Source of the DNA: Candidatus Dormiibacterota bacterium
GTDB taxonomy: Bacteria; Chloroflexota; Dormibacteria; Dormibacterales; Dormibacteraceae
Direction of reading: 5' to 3'
Length of the DNA: 64,000 bases
Assembly: GCA_003151935.1 (NCBI GenBank)
Contig: PLYZ01000067.1
Location: 33,784 to 97,783 of the forward strand
Below, piece after piece: positions 6,867-54,967 of the stretch (position 1 is its first letter; each line of letters begins with the position of its first letter). Under the pieces are notes generated by a model, which did not search any database, had not been told where the DNA came from, and saw only the letters and a program-made list of their open reading frames with translations. The position numbers and the translations under genes were made by a program.

Positions 6867-7637
6867 ATGAAGGACGATTCGATCCTCAGGCCCCTGTATA
6901 CGTTCGCGCCCAAGCTTCGTGCCGCGTCGAACAGGGCTTTGAGCGTCTACCTGCCCGTGCGTGCCGAGGGATTCGACATGCGTCAGTACGACATCGAGCT
7001 CGGACAGCTGAGGCGTAGGTACAAAGACCGCCTCGACGACGAAGAACAGGAGATCATGGAGCGAGAGCTGCGGCGCCTTAGCGAGCACCTCGAAGTCGTG
7101 AAGCCAGCCGGATGTCCGGCGCTTGCCGGATTCGGCGACGAACCGGTGGGTTTGCTCGAGCTGGTCAAGCTCCCGATGGAGACGGAGGCGAGGTTGGAGG
7201 TGGGCCCCTTGCTGCTCGCACCGATCGAGCGGCAGCTGGAGCGGTTTCCACCGGCGCTGATAGCGGTGGTCGACAAAGAGCACGCGAAGCTGTTCGCCGC
7301 CGTTCTCGATGAGGTGTATCCGCTCGAGCAGCTTCACGGAGTAGAGGTCAGGCGAAACAAGGCCGGCGGGACCTCCGCGCCGAGCAACCAACGCAAGGCG
7401 GACAACCGCACGAAGTCCAACCTCGAGCGGGTCATCGACGTCATCGGCCACGAAGTGCAGTCGGGCGCCTACAGGCGGATCTTCGTCGCAGGGCCGGAGG
7501 AGGCGCGCACGGAGCTCGAGCGCCTCATGCCGCCACCCCTGAAGCGCATGCTGGCCGGGCACCTGTCGGCATCCATCCAATCGACTCGACTGCAGCACCA
7601 GCTGCGCCAGGAGCTCGTGCTCGCCAGGTCCCATTGA
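6867..7637 (+). CDS. Bacterial eRF1/Pelota/Vms1-like protein (baeRF superfamily)
   Basis: 256-aa ORF. The central ...VVDKEHAKLF...VEVRRNKAGGTSAPSNQRKADNRTKSNLERV...IFVAGPEE... resembles the GG-x-S-x(n)-Q-R loop and the flanking domain of Vms1/baeRF proteins. The assignment is by eye only. Confidence 0.5.
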   Translation: MKDDSILRPLYTFAPKLRAASNRALSVYLPVRAEGFDMRQYDIELGQLRRRYKDRLDDEEQEIMERELRRLSEHLEVVKPAGCPALAGFGDEPVGLLELVKLPMETEARLEVGPLLLAPIERQLERFPPALIAVVDKEHAKLFAAVLDEVYPLEQLHGVEVRRNKAGGTSAPSNQRKADNRTKSNLERVIDVIGHEVQSGAYRRIFVAGPEEARTELERLMPPPLKRMLAGHLSASIQSTRLQHQLRQELVLARSH

Positions 7638-7722
7638 CCCGACGCCGCACTGACAGAAAACTCTCAGGCTCTCGGGCGAAGCAACATCTGCGTTTGCATC
7701 ACTGATTAGATAGGCGTCTCTC

Positions 7723-7888
7723 ATGTCGAGGCCATCCGACTCCGCGATCGAGGTGACCGCCCTGCGGATACGCGAGCCATCGCGGCACATTCCGTCGAAC
7801 CAGGGTGGAGACGGTCGGGCTGGACGGGATCGACCTGGCCATCCAGCCCGGGGAGCATGATCGCGTCGCGCATGATCAGCGCCAGTGA
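7723..7888 (+). pseudogene. Remnant of an ABC-transporter ATPase N-terminus (frameshifted, truncated before Walker A)
   Basis: ATG 7723 gives MSRPSDSAIEVTALRIREPSRH.... A second frame continues RVETVGLDGIDLAIQPGEH..., the typical pre-Walker-A strand, and then stops at 7886-7888. No GxxGxGKS follows in any frame. Confidence 0.4.
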
Positions 7889-7945
7889 GGCCGGCGTATT
7901 CGTCCGCTCGACGTACCTGCAGTACGTCGCCCTTTTCTAGGGGGC

Positions 7946-8770
7946 TCACCGATTCGCCACCAGCAGCTCCAGCGAGTCGACGAGCCTCGGGCCGGGCCGG
8001 TTGAAATAGGCGGATCCATCGAGGACGACAACGCGCTGTGCGCCCACCGCTTCGATCCGCTCGCGCACTCCGTCGGCTTCCGTCTTTGCCCGGGCGAGGT
8101 CGAAGCCGCACGGCGCCAGGATCAGCAGCTCCGGCCGCGCAGCCATCACCTCGCTCCAGTCCATCGCCACCGACGGGACGCCGGGCCGCGCCAGGCGATC
8201 GTCGATGCCGGCCAGGGCCAGCAGATCCGGCGTCCAGTGCCCGGCTCGATAAGGTGGATCGAGCCACTCGAGAAAAACGCCGCGGACTCTCGGAAGCAGG
8301 CGCACCTTCTGAGAAGCGGCCTCGATGCGCCGGCGCAACCCCTTCATCAACTCCGTGGGGTCGGCGCGACATGCCTGGGCCAGCTCTTCGATGTCGGTGA
8401 GAACGTCCTCGAAGGAATGAGGATGCTGCCGGATCATGCGAATTCCAGCGAGGTCCTGCGCGACCTGGTCGGCCGGAATCGCGCAAACGTCGCAGATGTC
8501 CTGCGCGACCACGAGGTCGGGCTCGAGTGCGAGGATGGCGTCGGTGTCGACGGAGTAAAGCGATCGGCCCTCCATCGCGGCCAGTGACACCTCCGCGTCG
8601 ATCGCACCGCTCGGCTTGTCGAAGAGCCGGAGCGTCGACCGCGTGACGATCGGGCGCGAGGCCGCCTCAGGTGGGTAGTCGCATTCGTGGGTGACGGCGA
8701 CGACCTGGTCCCCAAGCCCGAGCGCGAAAAGTGTTTCTGTCGCGCTCGGCAGAAGCGACACGATCCTCAT
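7946..8770 (-). CDS. BtuF/FhuD-type (Peripla_BP_2) binding protein without a signal peptide
   Basis: MRIVSLLPSATETLFALGLGDQVVAVTHECDYP...EPDLVVAQ...ELLILAPCG is the class III SBP fold. It starts directly with the first beta-strand, so there is no export signal. The ATG overlaps the upstream stop (ATGA). Confidence 0.75.
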   Translation of the reverse strand: MRIVSLLPSATETLFALGLGDQVVAVTHECDYPPEAASRPIVTRSTLRLFDKPSGAIDAEVSLAAMEGRSLYSVDTDAILALEPDLVVAQDICDVCAIPADQVAQDLAGIRMIRQHPHSFEDVLTDIEELAQACRADPTELMKGLRRRIEAASQKVRLLPRVRGVFLEWLDPPYRAGHWTPDLLALAGIDDRLARPGVPSVAMDWSEVMAARPELLILAPCGFDLARAKTEADGVRERIEAVGAQRVVVLDGSAYFNRPGPRLVDSLELLVANR

Positions 8771-9399
8771 CCGGCGCCGCCCTCTTGCCGCAATCGTTCG
8801 AGGACCTGCTGGAAGGCTTCGTACGGCTGGGCGCCGAGCACCAGGTAGCGCTGCCCAAAAATGTGCGCCGGGATGGCGTTGATTCCGACCGACTCGGCCT
8901 CGGCGCGATTCTTGTCGATCACGAGCGCGTAGCGATCCTCATCGATCGCCTTCCTCAGTTCGGTCGCATCCAGGCCGACTCCAACCCCGATCCGCACGAG
9001 GTCGTCCGTGTCCTCGAGCCGTCCGCTCCCCTCCCAGTGCGCCTTGAACAGCGCTTGGTGCATCGCCTCGAACTTTCCGTGCTCGCGCGCGAACTCCGCG
9101 GCGCCCAGCGCGCGGCGAGAGTTGATGATCACGTCGCGCTGCTGCATGGTGAGGCCGACCTCTGCAGCGATCTCCTCCAGGTGTTTTCGTATCTGTTCAA
9201 AGCGCGCGCCACCGAAATATGCTTCGCGCGGAATTCCCTCGAGAGGAGCCTCGGGGTGAAGCTCGTAGGGCAGCCAGGTCACGTGCACGAGGTTCTCCCG
9301 CTCGAGCTGCTCGACTCGGACCGAGTCGATGTAGCACCAGGGTCAAACGTAGTCGGAGAAAACGATCAGCTCGGCCGGCGCGGGTGGATTCATAGCCAT
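8767..9399 (-). CDS. DsbA/FrnE-like thiol-disulfide oxidoreductase with in-frame TGA (9345-9343) at the first Cys of the CPWC motif; candidate selenoprotein (U-P-W-C)
   Basis: The track ORF 8767..9288 lacks the redox helix. The same frame upstream reads MAMNPPAPAELIVFSDYV-TGA-PWCYIDSVRVEQLERENLVHVTWLPYE.... A hairpin lies 13 nt downstream of the TGA. Confidence 0.7.
9311..9329 (-). promoter_or_regulatory. SECIS-like hairpin downstream of the DsbA-like UGA
   Basis: The minus-strand RNA UCGACUCGG-U-CCGAGUCGA is a perfect palindrome. The stem starts at +14 from the UGA and the apical loop contains G and U. Confidence 0.55.
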
Positions 9400-9481
9400 C
9401 TGGAAACTATCCCTGAACCGGGAGGAGCGGGCGGGCCTGGTGCTCTCCGGCGCCGTCAAGACCCAGGCCCATCCGCAAGAG

Positions 9482-10348
9482 CTAGACTCGGGCCGCCGCC
9501 ACCTGCGCCGCGACCCGCGCGTTGTTGACCACCAGCTCGACGTTCAGATCGACGGATCGCCCTCCTGAGAGCTCCGCCATCCGCGCGAGCAGTCTTGGGG
9601 TGAGCTCCGATCCCGCGACGCCGGCGAGCTCTTGCACGGCGCGCTGAGCCAGCTCTTCCGCGCCGTCGAGCTCTCCGGGCGGTGGGACGGCCACGACGAT
9701 GCCACGCGTGCCCGTGTCCCAGGCGGCTCGCAGCACGCGTGCCGCTTCCTGCGGCCCGTCAACTCGAGCGCTAACCCGGCAGCCGCTGTGCCGCGTGTAG
9801 AACGCGGGGAACTCGTCGCAGCCGTAGCCGAGCACCGGGACGGAGAGGCTCTCCAGCCGCTCGAGCGTGAGCGGGAGGTCCAGCACGATCTTGGCCCCGG
9901 CGCAGAAGACCGCCACCGGCGTTCGACCCAGCTCCAGCAGGTCGGCCGACTGGTCTTCCGGATGCCCGCGGTGGACACCGCCGATTCCGCCGGTGGCAAA
10001 GAAGCGGATCCCGGCCATGGCGGCCGCGCGCATCGTCGCGGCCACCGTTGTCGCACCGACCTCGCCTCTGGCGATGGCCGGCCCGAGATCGCGCGAGCTC
10101 ACCTTGACGGCTCCCGCCGCCACCCGCTCGAGGTCACCGGCGCTCAGCCCGATGCGCAGCTTTCCATCGAGCACGGCCACGCTTGCGGGAACACCACCTT
10201 CCGCCCTTATCGCGGCCTCGCATTCGAACGCGGCTCGCAGGTTGTGCGGCGCCGGCAGGCCCTGCCCGACGATCGACGTCTCGAGAGCGACCACCGGGCG
10301 TCCAGCTGCTATGGCGTCCGCGACCTCTCGCGATATTTCGAGGACCAA
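9482..10348 (-). CDS. psuG: Pseudouridine-5'-phosphate glycosidase
   Basis: EISREVADAIAAGRPVVALETSIVGQGLP... is the IndA/PsuG pattern. TTG 10348 was chosen, just after the psuK stop. The track ORF starts at GTG 10444 inside psuK. Confidence 0.85.
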   Translation of the reverse strand: MVLEISREVADAIAAGRPVVALETSIVGQGLPAPHNLRAAFECEAAIRAEGGVPASVAVLDGKLRIGLSAGDLERVAAGAVKVSSRDLGPAIARGEVGATTVAATMRAAAMAGIRFFATGGIGGVHRGHPEDQSADLLELGRTPVAVFCAGAKIVLDLPLTLERLESLSVPVLGYGCDEFPAFYTRHSGCRVSARVDGPQEAARVLRAAWDTGTRGIVVAVPPPGELDGAEELAQRAVQELAGVAGSELTPRLLARMAELSGGRSVDLNVELVVNNARVAAQVAAARV

Positions 10349-10350
10349 GG

Positions 10351-11190
10351 TCAGCCGGGCCGCCCGCCGGTTCGCGTGACGGCTTCCGAGGCGACGATCA
10401 CCGCTCGCTCGGCCGCTGCCACCGGCGTGGCGCCGCGGAGCCACGCAGAGCAGAAGGCCGCGGCGAACGCGTCACCGGCGCCGGTGACGTCGACGTGCTG
10501 CACCACCGGAGCGGGTATGAGACGCCCGAACACGCTGCAGCCGAGGGAGCCAAGCTTGATCACGGGCACCTGCGCCATGTGCTCGACGGGAATTCCGATC
10601 GCCGCCACCTCCGCCTCTGTGCCGAATAGCAGCTCAGGCTTGAGGCGCGCCAGGTCGTAAGCCATTCTCGTGGGGCCGTATTCCTGCAGGCCGGCGACCG
10701 ATGAAAGGTCGATCGACAGCATTCCGCCGCCGTCGCGAACGAGCGTGATCGCGGCGCGCGTCGCCTGGCCGAGCGGATTCAGGAACAGCGAATAGGCGGG
10801 GACGTGGATCAGCTTCACGCCGTCGAACCAGGCCTCGACCAGGTCGTCCGGGCGCAACCCGACGCTGGCTCCGCGCTGGGTGGCCATGGCGTTCGCACCG
10901 TCGACTCCCACCAGGACAGCGATCGCACCGGTCGGCTCGCCGGCCCAGACCGGGCACACCTCGACGCCTTTGGCCTCGAGGTCTGACACCAGGCGCCTGC
11001 CGCGATCATCGTCTCCGACCCTCGTGACCAGGCGCACCGGCTCTCCCAGCGCGGCGGCCCAGGCGCAGAAGTTGGCCGCCTGGCCTCCACCGCCGACTCC
11101 TATCTTTGCCGATCGATCATCGTCAGGCCGCAGCGGGCCGTCGGGGACGATCGTGATGTCGAGGAGCAGGTCTCCGATGGAGAGAATCAT
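10351..11190 (-). CDS. psuK: PfkB-family sugar/nucleoside kinase (pseudouridine kinase-like)
   Basis: GGGGQAANFC...DVTGAGDAFAAAF motifs of ribokinase-like kinases. It lies directly upstream of psuG. Confidence 0.75.
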   Translation of the reverse strand: MILSIGDLLLDITIVPDGPLRPDDDRSAKIGVGGGGQAANFCAWAAALGEPVRLVTRVGDDDRGRRLVSDLEAKGVEVCPVWAGEPTGAIAVLVGVDGANAMATQRGASVGLRPDDLVEAWFDGVKLIHVPAYSLFLNPLGQATRAAITLVRDGGGMLSIDLSSVAGLQEYGPTRMAYDLARLKPELLFGTEAEVAAIGIPVEHMAQVPVIKLGSLGCSVFGRLIPAPVVQHVDVTGAGDAFAAAFCSAWLRGATPVAAAERAVIVASEAVTRTGGRPG

Positions 11191-30410: not shown

Positions 30411-31145
30411 GTGGCGATTCTGATCGATCGCGAGGAAGTCCAGGCCCTGGTCAAGCAGGGCGCACAGCTGGTCGAGGTGCTTCCCGCGAAGGAATACGCC
30501 GAGGATCACCTTCCAGGAGCTGTGAGCCATCCGCTCCGGCAGCTGGACAAAGAGGCCAACCAGATCGATCGCAACCGGCCCGTGATCGTCTACTGCTGGG
30601 ATGCCGCTTGAGACATGGCGCCCAGGGCCGCGGCGCGGCTCGAGAGTCTCGGATTCGACAGAGTCCATGAGTACAGGGCGGGCAAGCTCGACTGGCTGGC
30701 CGCCGGGCTGCCGGCCGAGGGCGAAAACTCGAACTGCCCACGCGCGGGCGAAGCGTCCCGCAAAGACGTGGTCGTCTGCGGCTTGAAGGACCGCTTGGGC
30801 GACGTCCGCGAGCGCGCGAGACAGGCGGGCTGGGACGTCGCAGTGGTCGTCGACGAAGAGCACATCGTGCTCGGGCTGATGAGGTCGAAGCAGCTGGAGA
30901 TGGATCCCAACCTGGCGATCGAGCTGGCCATGCGCCCGGGTTCCAGCACGTTTCGTCCTTACGTGTCGACCAAAGAGATGGCCGACTTCATGGTTGAGCA
31001 CGACCTCGACAGTGCTCCGATCACGACCTCGGACGGAAAACTCGTCGGCGTGCTGCTGAAGTCGGACACCGTACGCCTGGCGGCGGACGCCACCGCCTGC
31101 ACCCGCAAGCTGATAATCACGGCCGACCCGGCAGCCGACGCTTAG
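30411..31145 (+). CDS. Rhodanese-CBS-pair fusion protein with in-frame TGA (30609-30611) in the active-site loop; candidate selenoprotein (C-W-D-A-A-U)
   Basis: Track ORFs 30411..30611 and 30615..31145 share a frame and are separated only by TGA-GAC. Joined, they read ...RPVIVYCWDAA-U-DMAPRAAARLESLGFDRVHEYRAGKLDW..., one uninterrupted rhodanese domain followed by two CBS motifs. Confidence 0.65.
30625..30641 (+). promoter_or_regulatory. Hairpin 13 nt downstream of the rhodanese UGA (possible SECIS)
   Basis: GGGCCGC-GGC-GCGGCUC forms a 7-bp stem including one G-U pair. The small G-rich loop has no U, so it is less canonical than the other two hairpins. Confidence 0.35.
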
Positions 31146-33423: not shown

Positions 33424-34866
33424 GTGGTCATGGCTGAGCACGAGATCGGCGTAGTCGGCCTCGCCACGATGGGCGAGAACCTGGCGCGCAACCTCGCGTC
33501 GCACGGTGCGCACGTCGTTGTCTACAACCGGACTCGGAAGCGAACCGACGGTTTCATGGCTGCGTACTCGGCCGGCGGCGACTTCCGGGCGGCCGGCTCG
33601 TTGGAAGAGCTGGCGCGGATCCTCAAGCCGCCTCGCGCGATCCTCCTCATGGTGAAGGCCGGGTCCGCGGTCGACGAGGCGATCGACTCCCTGTCAAAGG
33701 TGCTCGAGCCTGGCGACACGATCATCGACGGCGGCAACTCGCTCTTTCACGACACCCGGCGCCGCGCCGAAGCCTCGGAGAAAGCGGGCCTGGGGTTCAT
33801 CGGCGCGGGCGTCTCAGGTGGGGAGGAGGGAGCCCTCCGTGGACCCAGCATCATGCCGGGCGGCTCGCGCGCGTCTTATGAGCGTGTTGCGGAGATGCTG
33901 ACGGGGATCTCGGCCAAGGTCGATGGAACGCCGTGCTGCGCGTACATCGGACCGGACGGGGCCGGCCACTTCGTGAAGATGGTGCACAACGGGATCGAGT
34001 ACGCCGATATCCAGCTGATCGCCGAGACGTACGACTTCCTACGCCAGGCCCTGGGCATGACGCCGGGGGAGCTGGCTGCTGTCTTTCGCGAGTGGAACGA
34101 GGGCGAGCTGCAGTCCTACCTGATCGAGATCACGGCCAACGTGCTGGCCAAGGACGACGGCGCGAGTGGATCGGCGCTCGTCGACGCGATAGTCGATCAG
34201 GCCGAGCAAAAAGGCACAGGGCGATGGACGAGCGAATCGGCGCTGGAGCTCGGCGTGCCGCTGACGGGCATCACCGAGGCGGTGTTCGCGCGCATCGTCT
34301 CGAGCCAGAAGGCGCAGCGGGTCAAGGCTGCAGACATCCTCGCGGGACCGACGGGACGCGGATCCGCCGGACCCAACCCCGGCCTGGTCGATGATGTGCG
34401 CGAGGCGCTCTACGCGTCGAAGATCGTCGCTTACGCGCAGGGCTTCGAGCACCTGCGCGCCGGATCAAAGGAGTTCGGATGGGACCTCGATCTAGGCGCG
34501 CTCGCCACGATCTGGAGAGGTGGCTGCATCATCCGGGCGCGCTTTCTCGACCGGATCAAGGATGTGTATGCCGAGTCCCCGGACCTACCGAATCTCATGC
34601 TGGCCCCGTTTTTCCAGCAGGCGCTTGCGACAGCGCAAAAGCCATGGCGCTCCGTCGTCAAACAGGCGGTGGACCACGGCGTGCCCATCCCTGCCTTCGC
34701 CTCATCGCTGGCGTATTACGACGGCTACAGGCGGGCGCGCGGCCCCGCCAACCTCATCCAGGGCCTGCGCGACTACTTCGGATCGCACACCTACCATCGA
34801 AGCGATCGCGAGGGCTCCTTCCACACGCGCTGGGCGCAGGATGGAGCCGAGGTCCGGACCGACTAG
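33424..34866 (+). CDS. gnd: 6-phosphogluconate dehydrogenase (decarboxylating)
   Basis: IGVVGLATMGENLARNL...GAGHFVKMVHNGIEYADIQLI... is the canonical Gnd pattern. Start GTG 33424 or ATG 33430. Confidence 0.95.
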   Translation: MVMAEHEIGVVGLATMGENLARNLASHGAHVVVYNRTRKRTDGFMAAYSAGGDFRAAGSLEELARILKPPRAILLMVKAGSAVDEAIDSLSKVLEPGDTIIDGGNSLFHDTRRRAEASEKAGLGFIGAGVSGGEEGALRGPSIMPGGSRASYERVAEMLTGISAKVDGTPCCAYIGPDGAGHFVKMVHNGIEYADIQLIAETYDFLRQALGMTPGELAAVFREWNEGELQSYLIEITANVLAKDDGASGSALVDAIVDQAEQKGTGRWTSESALELGVPLTGITEAVFARIVSSQKAQRVKAADILAGPTGRGSAGPNPGLVDDVREALYASKIVAYAQGFEHLRAGSKEFGWDLDLGALATIWRGGCIIRARFLDRIKDVYAESPDLPNLMLAPFFQQALATAQKPWRSVVKQAVDHGVPIPAFASSLAYYDGYRRARGPANLIQGLRDYFGSHTYHRSDREGSFHTRWAQDGAEVRTD

Positions 34867-53338: not shown

Positions 53339-54913
53339 TCAGGCCTGTTGCGCGTACTCCAGGGAATCGACCAGCGCCAGCAGCGAGGCCTCGATGATGT
53401 TGCTCGAGCACCCGACGGTGGTCCAGCGCTTGAGGCCCTTTCCGGATTCGATGAGCACCCGCGTGGTCGCGGCAGTGCCCGCGTCGCCATCAAGGATGCG
53501 CACCTTGTAGTCGTGCAGCGTCACTCCGCGCAGGCCCGGAAACCGCGGGCTGAGCGCTTTCCGGAGTGCCGCGTCGAGCGCGTTGACGGGGCCATTCCCG
53601 GCCGCGGCGGTGTGATAGACGGTGCCGGCGACCTCGACCTGCACGGTTGCCTCGGCGTTGACCGAGTCGCCGTTCTTGCGGACGTTCGTCGTGAAGTCGG
53701 CCACGGTCCAGGGGGCTTTGTAGCCCGGCTGCAGCCGTCGAACCAGCATCTCGAAGGACGCGTCCGCGGCCTCGTAGGAATAGCCGCGATGCTCGAGCTC
53801 TTTGAGGTGCTGCACCAGCCACCTGGTCTGGGGGTCGTCCCGGTCGAGCTCCAGCCCGAACTCTCGCGCCTTGGCGAGCACATTGCCGCGACCTGACAGC
53901 TCCGAGACGAGCACCCGGGCCTCGTTGCCGACGAGGGCCGGGTCGATGTGCTGGTATGAGTCCTTGTGCCGCAGGACAGCAGCGACGTGCTGTCCTCCCT
54001 TGTGTGCGAAGGCGCCGTGGCCGACAAACGGCTGCTGCAGCGGCAGGGCCAGGTTTGCGATCTCGGCCACCGTGCGAGACAGCTCGGTGAAACGCGCGAT
54101 CGAGGCCCCGGGCAGGGCTTCCACGCCGAGCTTCAGAACGAGGTTCGCCACCACCGAGACCAGGTTCGCGTTGCCGCAGCGTTCGCCGTATCCGTTGATG
54201 GTGCCCTGGACCATATCGGCTCCGGCCTGCACACCCTCGAGCGAGTTGGCCACGGCGAGCTCGCAATCGTTGTGCGTGTGGATTCCGACGCGAACCGGAC
54301 GATCGAGGTCGGAGAGCGCGCCGCGCACCGCCTCCACGCCGCGCCTGATCTCGGCCGGCAGGCTGCCTCCGTTGGTGTCGCACAGGACGACCCATGTCGC
54401 ACCGGCGCGGGCGGCGGCCAGGCAGACCTCGAGCGCGTACTCGGAATCCCGGGCGAAACCGTCGAAGAAGTGCTCAGCATCGAAGATCAGCTCCCGGCCA
54501 AGGCCCACGCCGTAAGCGACGGATTCCTCAACCATGGCCAGGTTTTCGTTGGGCGTGGTCTGCAGCACGGTGGTGACCTGCCACGGGTCGCTCTTACCGA
54601 CCAGGGTCCACACCGGCGCCGCACTCTGGGTGAGAGCGAGCAGGTTGGCGTCGTCCTCACAGCGGCCGTTGGCGCGCCGTGTCGCCCCGAACGCCGCGAG
54701 CTTCGCCCGTTTCAGGGGACGCTGGCGCAGGCTGGCGAACAGCTCCTCGTCCTTGGGGTTCGATCCCGGGAATCCGCCCTCCACGTAATCGAAGCCGAGA
54801 CCGTCCAGGGCGCGGGCAATGCGCACCTTGTCGGCGGCCGAGAAGGACACGGCCGGACCCTGAGCCCCGTCGCGCAGCGTCGTGTCGTAGATGACGATCC
54901 GCCGATTGGACAT
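53339..54913 (-). CDS. cimA: Citramalate synthase-type enzyme (LeuA_rel / CimA family)
   Basis: IVIYDTTLRDGAQGPAVSFSAADKVRIARALDGLGFDYVEGGFPGSNPKDEELF... plus the long C-terminal regulatory domain typical of the CimA clade. ATG 54913 is preceded by GGGAGG. Confidence 0.8.
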   Translation of the reverse strand: MSNRRIVIYDTTLRDGAQGPAVSFSAADKVRIARALDGLGFDYVEGGFPGSNPKDEELFASLRQRPLKRAKLAAFGATRRANGRCEDDANLLALTQSAAPVWTLVGKSDPWQVTTVLQTTPNENLAMVEESVAYGVGLGRELIFDAEHFFDGFARDSEYALEVCLAAARAGATWVVLCDTNGGSLPAEIRRGVEAVRGALSDLDRPVRVGIHTHNDCELAVANSLEGVQAGADMVQGTINGYGERCGNANLVSVVANLVLKLGVEALPGASIARFTELSRTVAEIANLALPLQQPFVGHGAFAHKGGQHVAAVLRHKDSYQHIDPALVGNEARVLVSELSGRGNVLAKAREFGLELDRDDPQTRWLVQHLKELEHRGYSYEAADASFEMLVRRLQPGYKAPWTVADFTTNVRKNGDSVNAEATVQVEVAGTVYHTAAAGNGPVNALDAALRKALSPRFPGLRGVTLHDYKVRILDGDAGTAATTRVLIESGKGLKRWTTVGCSSNIIEASLLALVDSLEYAQQA

Positions 54914-54944
54914 AAAAAAACCTCCCGACCCTGTTGCCGGGAGG
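54914..54944 (-). terminator. Intrinsic terminator/attenuator hairpin immediately 5' of the cimA start codon
   Basis: The minus-strand RNA CCUCCCGG-CAACAGG-GUCGGGAGG is followed by UUUUUUU and then AUG. The 3' arm contains the cimA Shine-Dalgarno. Confidence 0.7.
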
Positions 54945-54967
54945 TCCAACGACTCGAGCGACGTGCG

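Follow-up and report, generated by a model that had tools for sequence, protein, structure and literature searches.

We analysed a 64,000-nucleotide stretch of DNA from a Candidatus Dormiibacterota bacterium (Dormibacterota below; assembly GCA_003151935.1, contig PLYZ01000067.1, forward-strand positions 33,784 to 97,783), which we call the window and number from its first letter, and find that the minus-strand gene at 9399..8767 very probably encodes selenocysteine (Sec) at an in-frame TGA codon. The phylum Dormibacterota is widespread in soil; its members are generally regarded as aerobic scavengers of trace gases and are not known to use selenium. The gene product is related to the thiol-disulfide oxidoreductases FrnE and DsbA, and the TGA occupies the first cysteine position of the catalytic CXXC motif. 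The codon is followed by an RNA hairpin that resembles a selenocysteine insertion sequence (SECIS), and a second, unrelated gene in the window has the same arrangement.

Translation of the minus strand from 9399 to 8767 yields one 211-codon frame, MAMNPPAPAELIVFSDYV-stop-PWCYIDSVRVEQLE...GGAG-stop, in which the TGA at 9345-9343 is the sole internal stop. The open reading frame (ORF) listed for this locus, 8767..9288, is the portion 3' of the first GTG after that codon. With Cys placed at the TGA, residues 11-200 of the read-through frame match positions 2-190 of the 191-position Pfam profile DSBA (PF01323; E = 1.5e-31), scoring 110.1 bits against a gathering threshold of 25.6. This near-complete match depends on reading through the TGA. 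The listed ORF is therefore a fragment that has lost its N-terminus and with it the redox motif, as a first-pass annotation of this DNA had concluded when it described the ORF as beginning in mid-fold. The motif read across the family, with Sec at the TGA, is U-P-W-C, or U-P-F-C in two genomes. The conserved GINAIPAH segment near the C-terminus lies opposite GITGVPFF of FrnE and, going by known DsbA and thioredoxin folds, would form the cis-Pro loop of the thioredoxin fold. NCBIfam holds no model specific to the protein.

The best match among solved structures is FrnE of Deinococcus radiodurans (5cnw/5cp1; E = 4e-22 over residues 11-201), whose SDIACPWCYI aligns column for column with SDYV[TGA]PWCYI, with the TGA on the first Cys of CXXC. 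Together with alignment to a Cys-containing homologue (see below), this confirms the assignment of the TGA to the first Cys of CPWC in the first-pass annotation. The two proteins share the SD-x-x-C-P-W-C-Y context, the helical insertion and the lack of a signal peptide; they differ in the proposed replacement of Cys by Sec and in length, FrnE being approximately 50 residues longer at the C-terminus (260 versus 210 aa). The C-terminal tail of FrnE carries a second Cys motif. The window protein ends at residue 210 with C22 as its single Cys and no second Cys motif, and with neither the extension nor a further Cys it is therefore FrnE-like rather than a strict FrnE orthologue. Compared to the periplasmic DsbA of Escherichia coli, with which it shares a thioredoxin fold with helical insertion and a CXXC-type site, it has UPWC instead of CPHC and no signal peptide. 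Ahead of the first domain strand there are only some 10 residues (MAMNPPAPAE), and a signal peptide for export is not present. With the Pfam domain starting at residue 11, the protein is therefore predicted to be cytoplasmic and is unlikely to oxidise secreted proteins.

Homology searching brought up hundreds of relatives, of which the best 120 (76-98% identity) were inspected. In the databases, 119 of these are calls of approximately 170-190 aa with about 80% query coverage, truncated at the same place and without the catalytic motif. The exception, P0006 (207 aa, 77% identity), contains CPWC and reads ...FSAYVCPWCYIDSVRVEQLE...; when P0006 itself was used as the query it proved to be a singleton Cys form, all other close relatives being truncated. 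Among species-representative genomes, 104 relatives were found and the best 80 were fetched (65-88% identity). Nearly all of these loci come from Candidatus Dormibacterota metagenome-assembled genomes (MAGs), with some older "Chloroflexi bacterium CF_" labels and a few implausible bin labels. The TGA is present at the identical codon in all 80, and the frame is intact in 79. Its flanks are invariant, with FSDYV before the codon and P[W/F]C-Y[I/V/L]DSVRV after it. Upstream, over codons -8 to -1 relative to the TGA, the amino acids are conserved while the synonymous sites vary: Leu-8, Ser-4 and Asp-3 are each 100% conserved and are written with 5, 4 and 2 codons, respectively. In 51 of 80 sequences (79 loci plus the window), the nearest upstream in-frame ATG lies 16-17 codons before the TGA.

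Several copies are irregular. One locus (L075, region 3553) lacks 1 nt of the CCC run that follows the TGA (TGACC-TGG), and a protein cluster from the Logan collection (P0200, 5 members) implies a 1-nt insertion in that run, through which gene callers bypass the TGA in another frame; both indels may stem from homopolymer errors in assembly or represent genuine frameshift alleles. In a 200-aa relative (P0152) the segment DEVGLVMKQRD...LEDVDDL is duplicated internally, which probably reflects faulty assembly of the source metagenome. Seven loci (L003, L009, L023, L031, L035, L060 and L080) carry the Dormibacterota-type gene under the labels Solirubrobacteraceae, Candidatus Acidoferrum, Micrarchaeaceae archaeon, Verrucomicrobiia or Nitrosopolaris, and are probably mis-binned contigs in the source MAG sets.

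Downstream of the TGA the mRNA is predicted to form a stable stem-loop. ViennaRNA gives 8 bp closed by a GUC loop, and the 61-nt fold has a free energy of -26.6 kcal/mol (z = -2.94), a value reached by none of 200 shuffles. The RNAalifold consensus of 23 species has 7 bp and the loop GGUC[C/A]. The first-pass annotation had drawn a 9-bp stem with a 1-nt loop at 9329-9311; its start, 13 nt after the UGA, stands, while the single-nucleotide loop is sterically impossible and gives way to either of the two predicted forms. A weak lower stem flanks the upper one and has modest support in the RNAalifold alignment, with one compensatory change from C-G to U-A in 2 of 23 species and a broken pairing in 3 of 23.

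The hairpin is under selection at the RNA level. Synonymous entropy collapses from codon -2 to codon +10, and all 7 core pairs are formed in 79 of 80 genomes, compared to 17% expected from the peptide IDSVRVE and the codon usage of the gene. The GGU apex is invariant in the 80 genomes. In the set of 74 sequences used for synonymous counts (pairing counts refer to the 80-genome set), Ser+7 is always TCG, whereas Ser-4, outside the hairpin, uses four codons; Asp+6 is always GAC, whereas Asp-3 is GAC in 60 and GAT in 14; and Val+10 is always GTC, whereas Val+19 uses four codons. Arg+9 is encoded only by CGA, CGG, AGA or AGG, with CGC and CGT in none of the 74, while at the other Arg positions of the gene these two together account for 61% of codons. 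The A or G at the third position of Arg+9 is the partner of U22 in the stem, and this U:A or U:G pair is kept in 80 of 80 genomes. The I-D-S-V-R-V-E peptide is itself invariant, probably because the hairpin is encoded there.

The element also fits the consensus for bacterial SECIS elements (bSECIS). Published criteria call for a loop of 3-9 nt, a stem of 4-16 bp, a G in the first two loop positions, a UGA-to-loop distance of 16-37 nt and a minimum free energy of -7.5 kcal/mol or lower (PMC13188914). The apical loop here is 3 or 5 nt, the upper stem 7-8 bp, the first two loop positions are G[G/U] and the UGA-to-loop distance is 20-21 nt; the minimum free energy is -9.1 to -10.4 kcal/mol in 79 of 80 genomes and -7.2 kcal/mol in one. 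With these values and the fixed apex, the position and shape are those of a bacterial SECIS, as first proposed. The fdhF SECIS of E. coli (NC_000913.3), the archetype of such bacterial elements, has the identical apex GGUC in a stem-loop within the ORF just after the UGA, and its UGA-to-loop distance is 18 nt against 20 nt for the window element. The two differ in the helix: a U is bulged out in fdhF, whose lower helix is longer and imperfect, whereas the window element has a perfect, GC-rich stem of 7-8 bp above its weak lower stem of 3 bp.

We scanned approximately 1.6 Mb for the whole signature, defined as a TGA followed after 10-16 nt by a stem of at least 7 bp with a G-first loop, and with coding periodicity on both sides of the codon. 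The scan gave 89 matches, of which 88 belong to the FrnE/DsbA-like family or to a family of rhodanese-CBS proteins, the remaining one being a shadow-ORF false positive. With 88 of the 89 in two families, the signature therefore occurs far beyond chance.

The rhodanese-CBS gene, on the plus strand of the window, was flagged by a scan for coding signal across in-frame TGA codons as the one further genuine case. The sequence around its TGA reads ...PVIVYCWDAA-stop-DMAPRAAARLESLGF..., and the Pfam Rhodanese match (residues 7-97, profile positions 2-101 of 102) spans the codon, with a CBS domain following. The TGA is kept in all 31 metagenomic relatives (61-95% identity). Its hairpin has the consensus G[G/A]GCCGC-G[G/U][C/G]-GCGGCUC, with 7 of 7 pairs in 32 of 32 sequences (window included), frozen synonymous sites and one change from G-U to A-U. 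In NCBIfam the protein shows only weak similarity, to TsoB (26 bits). Rhodanese selenoproteins have been catalogued in five forms, UxxS, UxxG, CxU, UxxG and UxxxxU (PMC13188914). The C-x4-U arrangement differs from all of them and may be a new form. Two unrelated genes of one organism thus have a UGA at or next to the catalytic Cys, each with a hairpin of the same geometry. Judged from sequence, the rhodanese-CBS case provides an independent second support for reading the TGA of the FrnE/DsbA-like gene as Sec.

At other positions TGA is an ordinary stop. It terminates 34 of the 56 genes called in the window, more than any other stop, and 60 of the 78 complete copies of the FrnE/DsbA-like gene, including the window copy at 8769-8767. 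From this stop usage it follows that TGA is not reassigned and, as the first-pass annotation held, that any recoding is local. A lineage-wide change of code, with TGA read as Trp or Gly, would be favoured by the in-frame TGA itself and by nothing else; coding signal across a TGA is confined to two genes in the 64 kb, and we give this explanation a negligible probability. Damage to the gene, with the TGA as a nonsense mutation or a miscalled TGC or TGT, is scarcely more credible. Damaged or mis-assembled copies do exist (L075 and P0200), yet the same TGA recurs in 80 independently assembled species genomes and several metagenomes, 79 of the genomes having intact frames. Purifying selection acts on both flanks, and a decaying copy would keep neither 65-88% identity nor frozen synonymous sites. 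The first-pass annotation had named the same break in relatives with no conserved hairpin as the sign of a pseudogene; the hairpin is kept in 79 of 80 genomes. It is also very unlikely that the gene makes two products, an 18-residue leader peptide ending at the TGA and a DsbA-like body started by reinitiation at a downstream GTG or ATG. Every gene caller begins the protein downstream of the TGA, at a length of about 171-173 aa, as reinitiation would have it, but the first in-frame start varies from +14 to +65 (with an ATG at +51 in 18 genomes), while the protein sequence of codons +1 to +18 (PWCYIDSVRVEQLE...) is conserved and synonymous sites vary from +11. The reinitiated product would, moreover, lack strand beta-1, the CXXC motif and helix alpha-1. 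The conserved TGA, the conserved coding on both flanks and the variable restart codon therefore lead us to exclude a pseudogene, a sequencing error and stop-and-reinitiate as working explanations.

The alternative that retains some weight, although we consider it improbable, is read-through that does not depend on a SECIS: the hairpin would stall the ribosome or make termination less efficient, and the UGA would be decoded by a dedicated suppressor tRNA or by a near-cognate one (Trp, Cys or Arg), giving a selenium-free product in a lineage without Sec machinery. No such machinery was found in the DNA that we searched: ARAGORN found no tRNA-Sec in the window and 115 loci, and SelA, SelB and SelD were absent from a tblastn search of the window and loci with E. 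coli queries (NC_000913.3). These searches covered the 64-kb window and approximately 1.5 Mb of gene-local loci from genomes of several Mb, so that absence there says little. Our literature search found no paper tying Dormibacterota to selenium use, which read-through without Sec would also accommodate. By contrast, the UGA coincides with the catalytic Cys of CXXC, a position at which the family is known to carry Sec and at which Trp or Arg would abolish the redox site; the element conforms to the bSECIS consensus of the SelB type and has the GGUC apex of fdhF; and in the rhodanese-CBS gene the UGA adjoins a catalytic Cys, again with identical spacing.

Like the failure to find the machinery in the DNA searched and the silence of the literature, some properties of the data count against Sec insertion. 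The upper stem is backed by invariance and by a wobble-compatible change from U-A to U-G, and compensatory double changes are not seen. The hairpin has no Rfam match: nothing in the 64-kb window passes the gathering threshold, and a permissive scan of 9250-9420 gave only a chance miRNA (E = 6.5). Bacterial SECIS elements are heterogeneous (PMC13188914), and the missing match fits this heterogeneity. The genomes come from related species, so counts such as 79 of 80 are not independent; synonymous sites in the flanks are near saturation (His+29 is CAC in 37 and CAT in 37), so that the time available was long enough for the hairpin to have decayed. The data derive entirely from MAGs and metagenomes. 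On balance, Sec at the TGA is the reading we strongly favour, and each of its predictions that could be put to the sequences was borne out.

If the TGA is decoded as Sec, expression would proceed as follows, by analogy with known bacterial Sec decoding and with the DsbA/thioredoxin family. Translation would start at ATG 9399 or 9393 and run for 16-18 codons to the UGA at 9345-9343. There, the GGUC-capped stem-loop 13 nt downstream would recruit SelB-GTP-Sec-tRNA(Sec), and Sec would be inserted in competition with release factor 2. The ribosome would then melt the hairpin, which also encodes I-D-S-V-R-V-E, and continue to the UGA at 8769-8767, where the lack of such a hairpin would allow termination, overlapping the ATG of the coupled BtuF-like gene. 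The predicted product is a cytoplasmic FrnE-type thiol-disulfide oxidoreductase of approximately 210 residues with the active site Sec19-Pro-Trp-Cys22. We infer that Sec would be the exposed nucleophile at the N-terminal end of helix alpha-1; its attack on a disulfide or sulfenate of the substrate would yield a selenenylsulfide, to be resolved by Cys22. Coordinates of all features are collected in Table 1.

Table 1. Coordinates, in window numbering, of the candidate selenoprotein genes, their recoding signals and the coupled gene.
Feature	Position	Strand	Details
Full coding sequence, FrnE/DsbA-like candidate selenoprotein	8767..9399	-	210 codons from ATG 9399; true stop TGA 8769-8767
Alternative start	ATG 9393	-	Position commonest among relatives
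Proposed Sec codon, in-frame TGA	9343..9345	-	Residue 19, first position of U-P-W-C
Cys22, predicted resolving Cys of U-P-W-C, only cysteine of the protein	9334..9336	-	From sequence; TGC or TGT in all genomes
SECIS-like upper stem-loop	9311..9329	-	UCGACUC 9329-9323, loop GGUCC 9322-9318, GAGUCGA 9317-9311; begins 13 nt after UGA
Weak 3-bp lower stem	9306..9335	-	GCU 9335-9333 with AGC 9308-9306; flanks upper stem
GINAIPAH segment	8863..8886	-	Pro177 at 8871-8869; invariant in alignment; opposite GITGVPFF of FrnE
BtuF/TroA-like binding protein, signal-less	7946..8770	-	Three invariant Cys (THEC, CxVC); ATGA overlap 8770-8767
Rhodanese + CBS candidate selenoprotein	30411..31145	+	244 codons; in-frame TGA 30609-30611; motif YC-WDAA-U-D (C-x4-U)
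Rhodanese-CBS hairpin	30625-30641	+	GGGCCGC-GGC-GCGGCUC; begins 13 nt after UGA

The DsbA-like UxxC family itself is not new, and the first-pass annotation rightly called such selenoproteins known. The 2005 Sargasso Sea selenoproteome (PMC1088965) first described DsbA-like UxxC (COG2761) proteins as a selenoprotein family, which has been catalogued ever since; a 2016 survey counted a DsbA-like selenoprotein in 41 organisms, and a 2026 catalogue lists the family as "DsbA-like protein form 1, PF01323, UxxC" (PMC13188914). On sequence grounds, the window gene has the defining features of this form: PF01323, UxxC with Sec proposed for the first Cys, a bSECIS in the coding sequence after the UGA and widespread Cys homologues (the published example is NIP15863.1, and the comparison is one of family features). 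Hosts listed so far are anaerobes, among them Anaeromyxobacter, Desulfovibrio and Desulfotomaculum, as well as marine metagenome organisms and Asgard archaea; the gene described here differs in being conserved across the soil phylum Dormibacterota. What is mildly new is this conservation, the uniform mis-annotation and the companion rhodanese-CBS C-x4-U candidate.

A broader interpretation is that Dormibacterota are phylum-wide Sec decoders with at least two conserved selenoproteins, the cytoplasmic U-P-W-C FrnE-like protein and the rhodanese-CBS C-x4-U protein, both truncated in every public annotation, and that in a subclade the FrnE-like protein forms a redox cassette with a cytoplasmic, Cys-rich BtuF-like protein; we give this an even chance of being correct. 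With the database calls truncated, functional predictions for the phylum overlook a redox enzyme and, by extension, a probable need for selenium, whose availability could matter for Dormibacterota. Selenoproteins are rarely retained by aerobic bacteria, according to a 2026 review (PMC13188914), and a Sec-oxidoreductase in 80 of 80 genomes of a soil and peat phylum would be a useful counter-example to that rarity. The gene also illustrates, in a clean natural case, how an RNA element can constrain the protein encoded by it, here through I-D-S-V-R-V-E. Taken together with the rhodanese-CBS gene, it points to a lineage-specific SECIS geometry (13-nt spacer, stem of 7-8 bp and a small G-first loop) that could be used for mining the Dormibacterota selenoproteome.

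Immediately downstream, the ATGA overlap couples the FrnE/DsbA-like gene to that of a signal-less BtuF-like protein, in agreement with the first-pass annotation. Pfam Peripla_BP_2 matches residues 3-251 of this protein (profile positions 1-232), which leaves no room for a signal peptide. Its Cys motifs are invariant in 36 sequences, always as Cys, and CxVC is mostly CDVC. The 4-nt overlap of the two genes occurs in approximately 30 of 80 loci and is thus confined to part of the phylum. A BtuF-like CxxU selenoprotein family has been catalogued (PMC13188914); the text of Peng et al. 2016 contains nothing on a BtuF-like selenoprotein family. By analogy, a redox partnership between the two coupled proteins would be a reasonable lead.

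Other read-through candidates in the window, at TGA 3291, 33694, 58480 and 53957, were rejected as opposite-strand shadows or low-complexity translations. The TGA at 53957 (plus strand) lies in a shadow frame of a LeuA-type gene (HMGL-like plus LeuA_dimer) at 53339-54949 on the minus strand. A perfect 9-bp hairpin, AGGACAGCA-GCGACG-UGCUGUCCU, stands 13 nt after this TGA, which accounts for the single false positive of the signature scan, and the plus-strand ORFs there are without a Pfam match.

At a distance of two genes from the recoded TGA, a plus-strand gene at 6867-7637, which converges on the BtuF-like gene, encodes a 256-aa protein with matches to Pfam baeRF_family10 and baeRF_family2 (bacterial eRF1-like) and a weak NCBIfam match to the Rv2629-family ribosome hibernation factor. 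This baeRF gene is present in 20 loci; a link between it and recoding is speculative. On the other side, psuG (Indigoidine_A) and psuK (PfkB) occupy 9482-11190 on the minus strand, directly upstream and approximately 80 nt from the start of the DsbA-like gene. A scan of 7600-9700 for promoters and terminators gave nothing above shuffle expectation, with no sigma-70-like promoter or intrinsic terminator before that start, and it is possible that psuG and psuK are co-transcribed with the DsbA-like gene.

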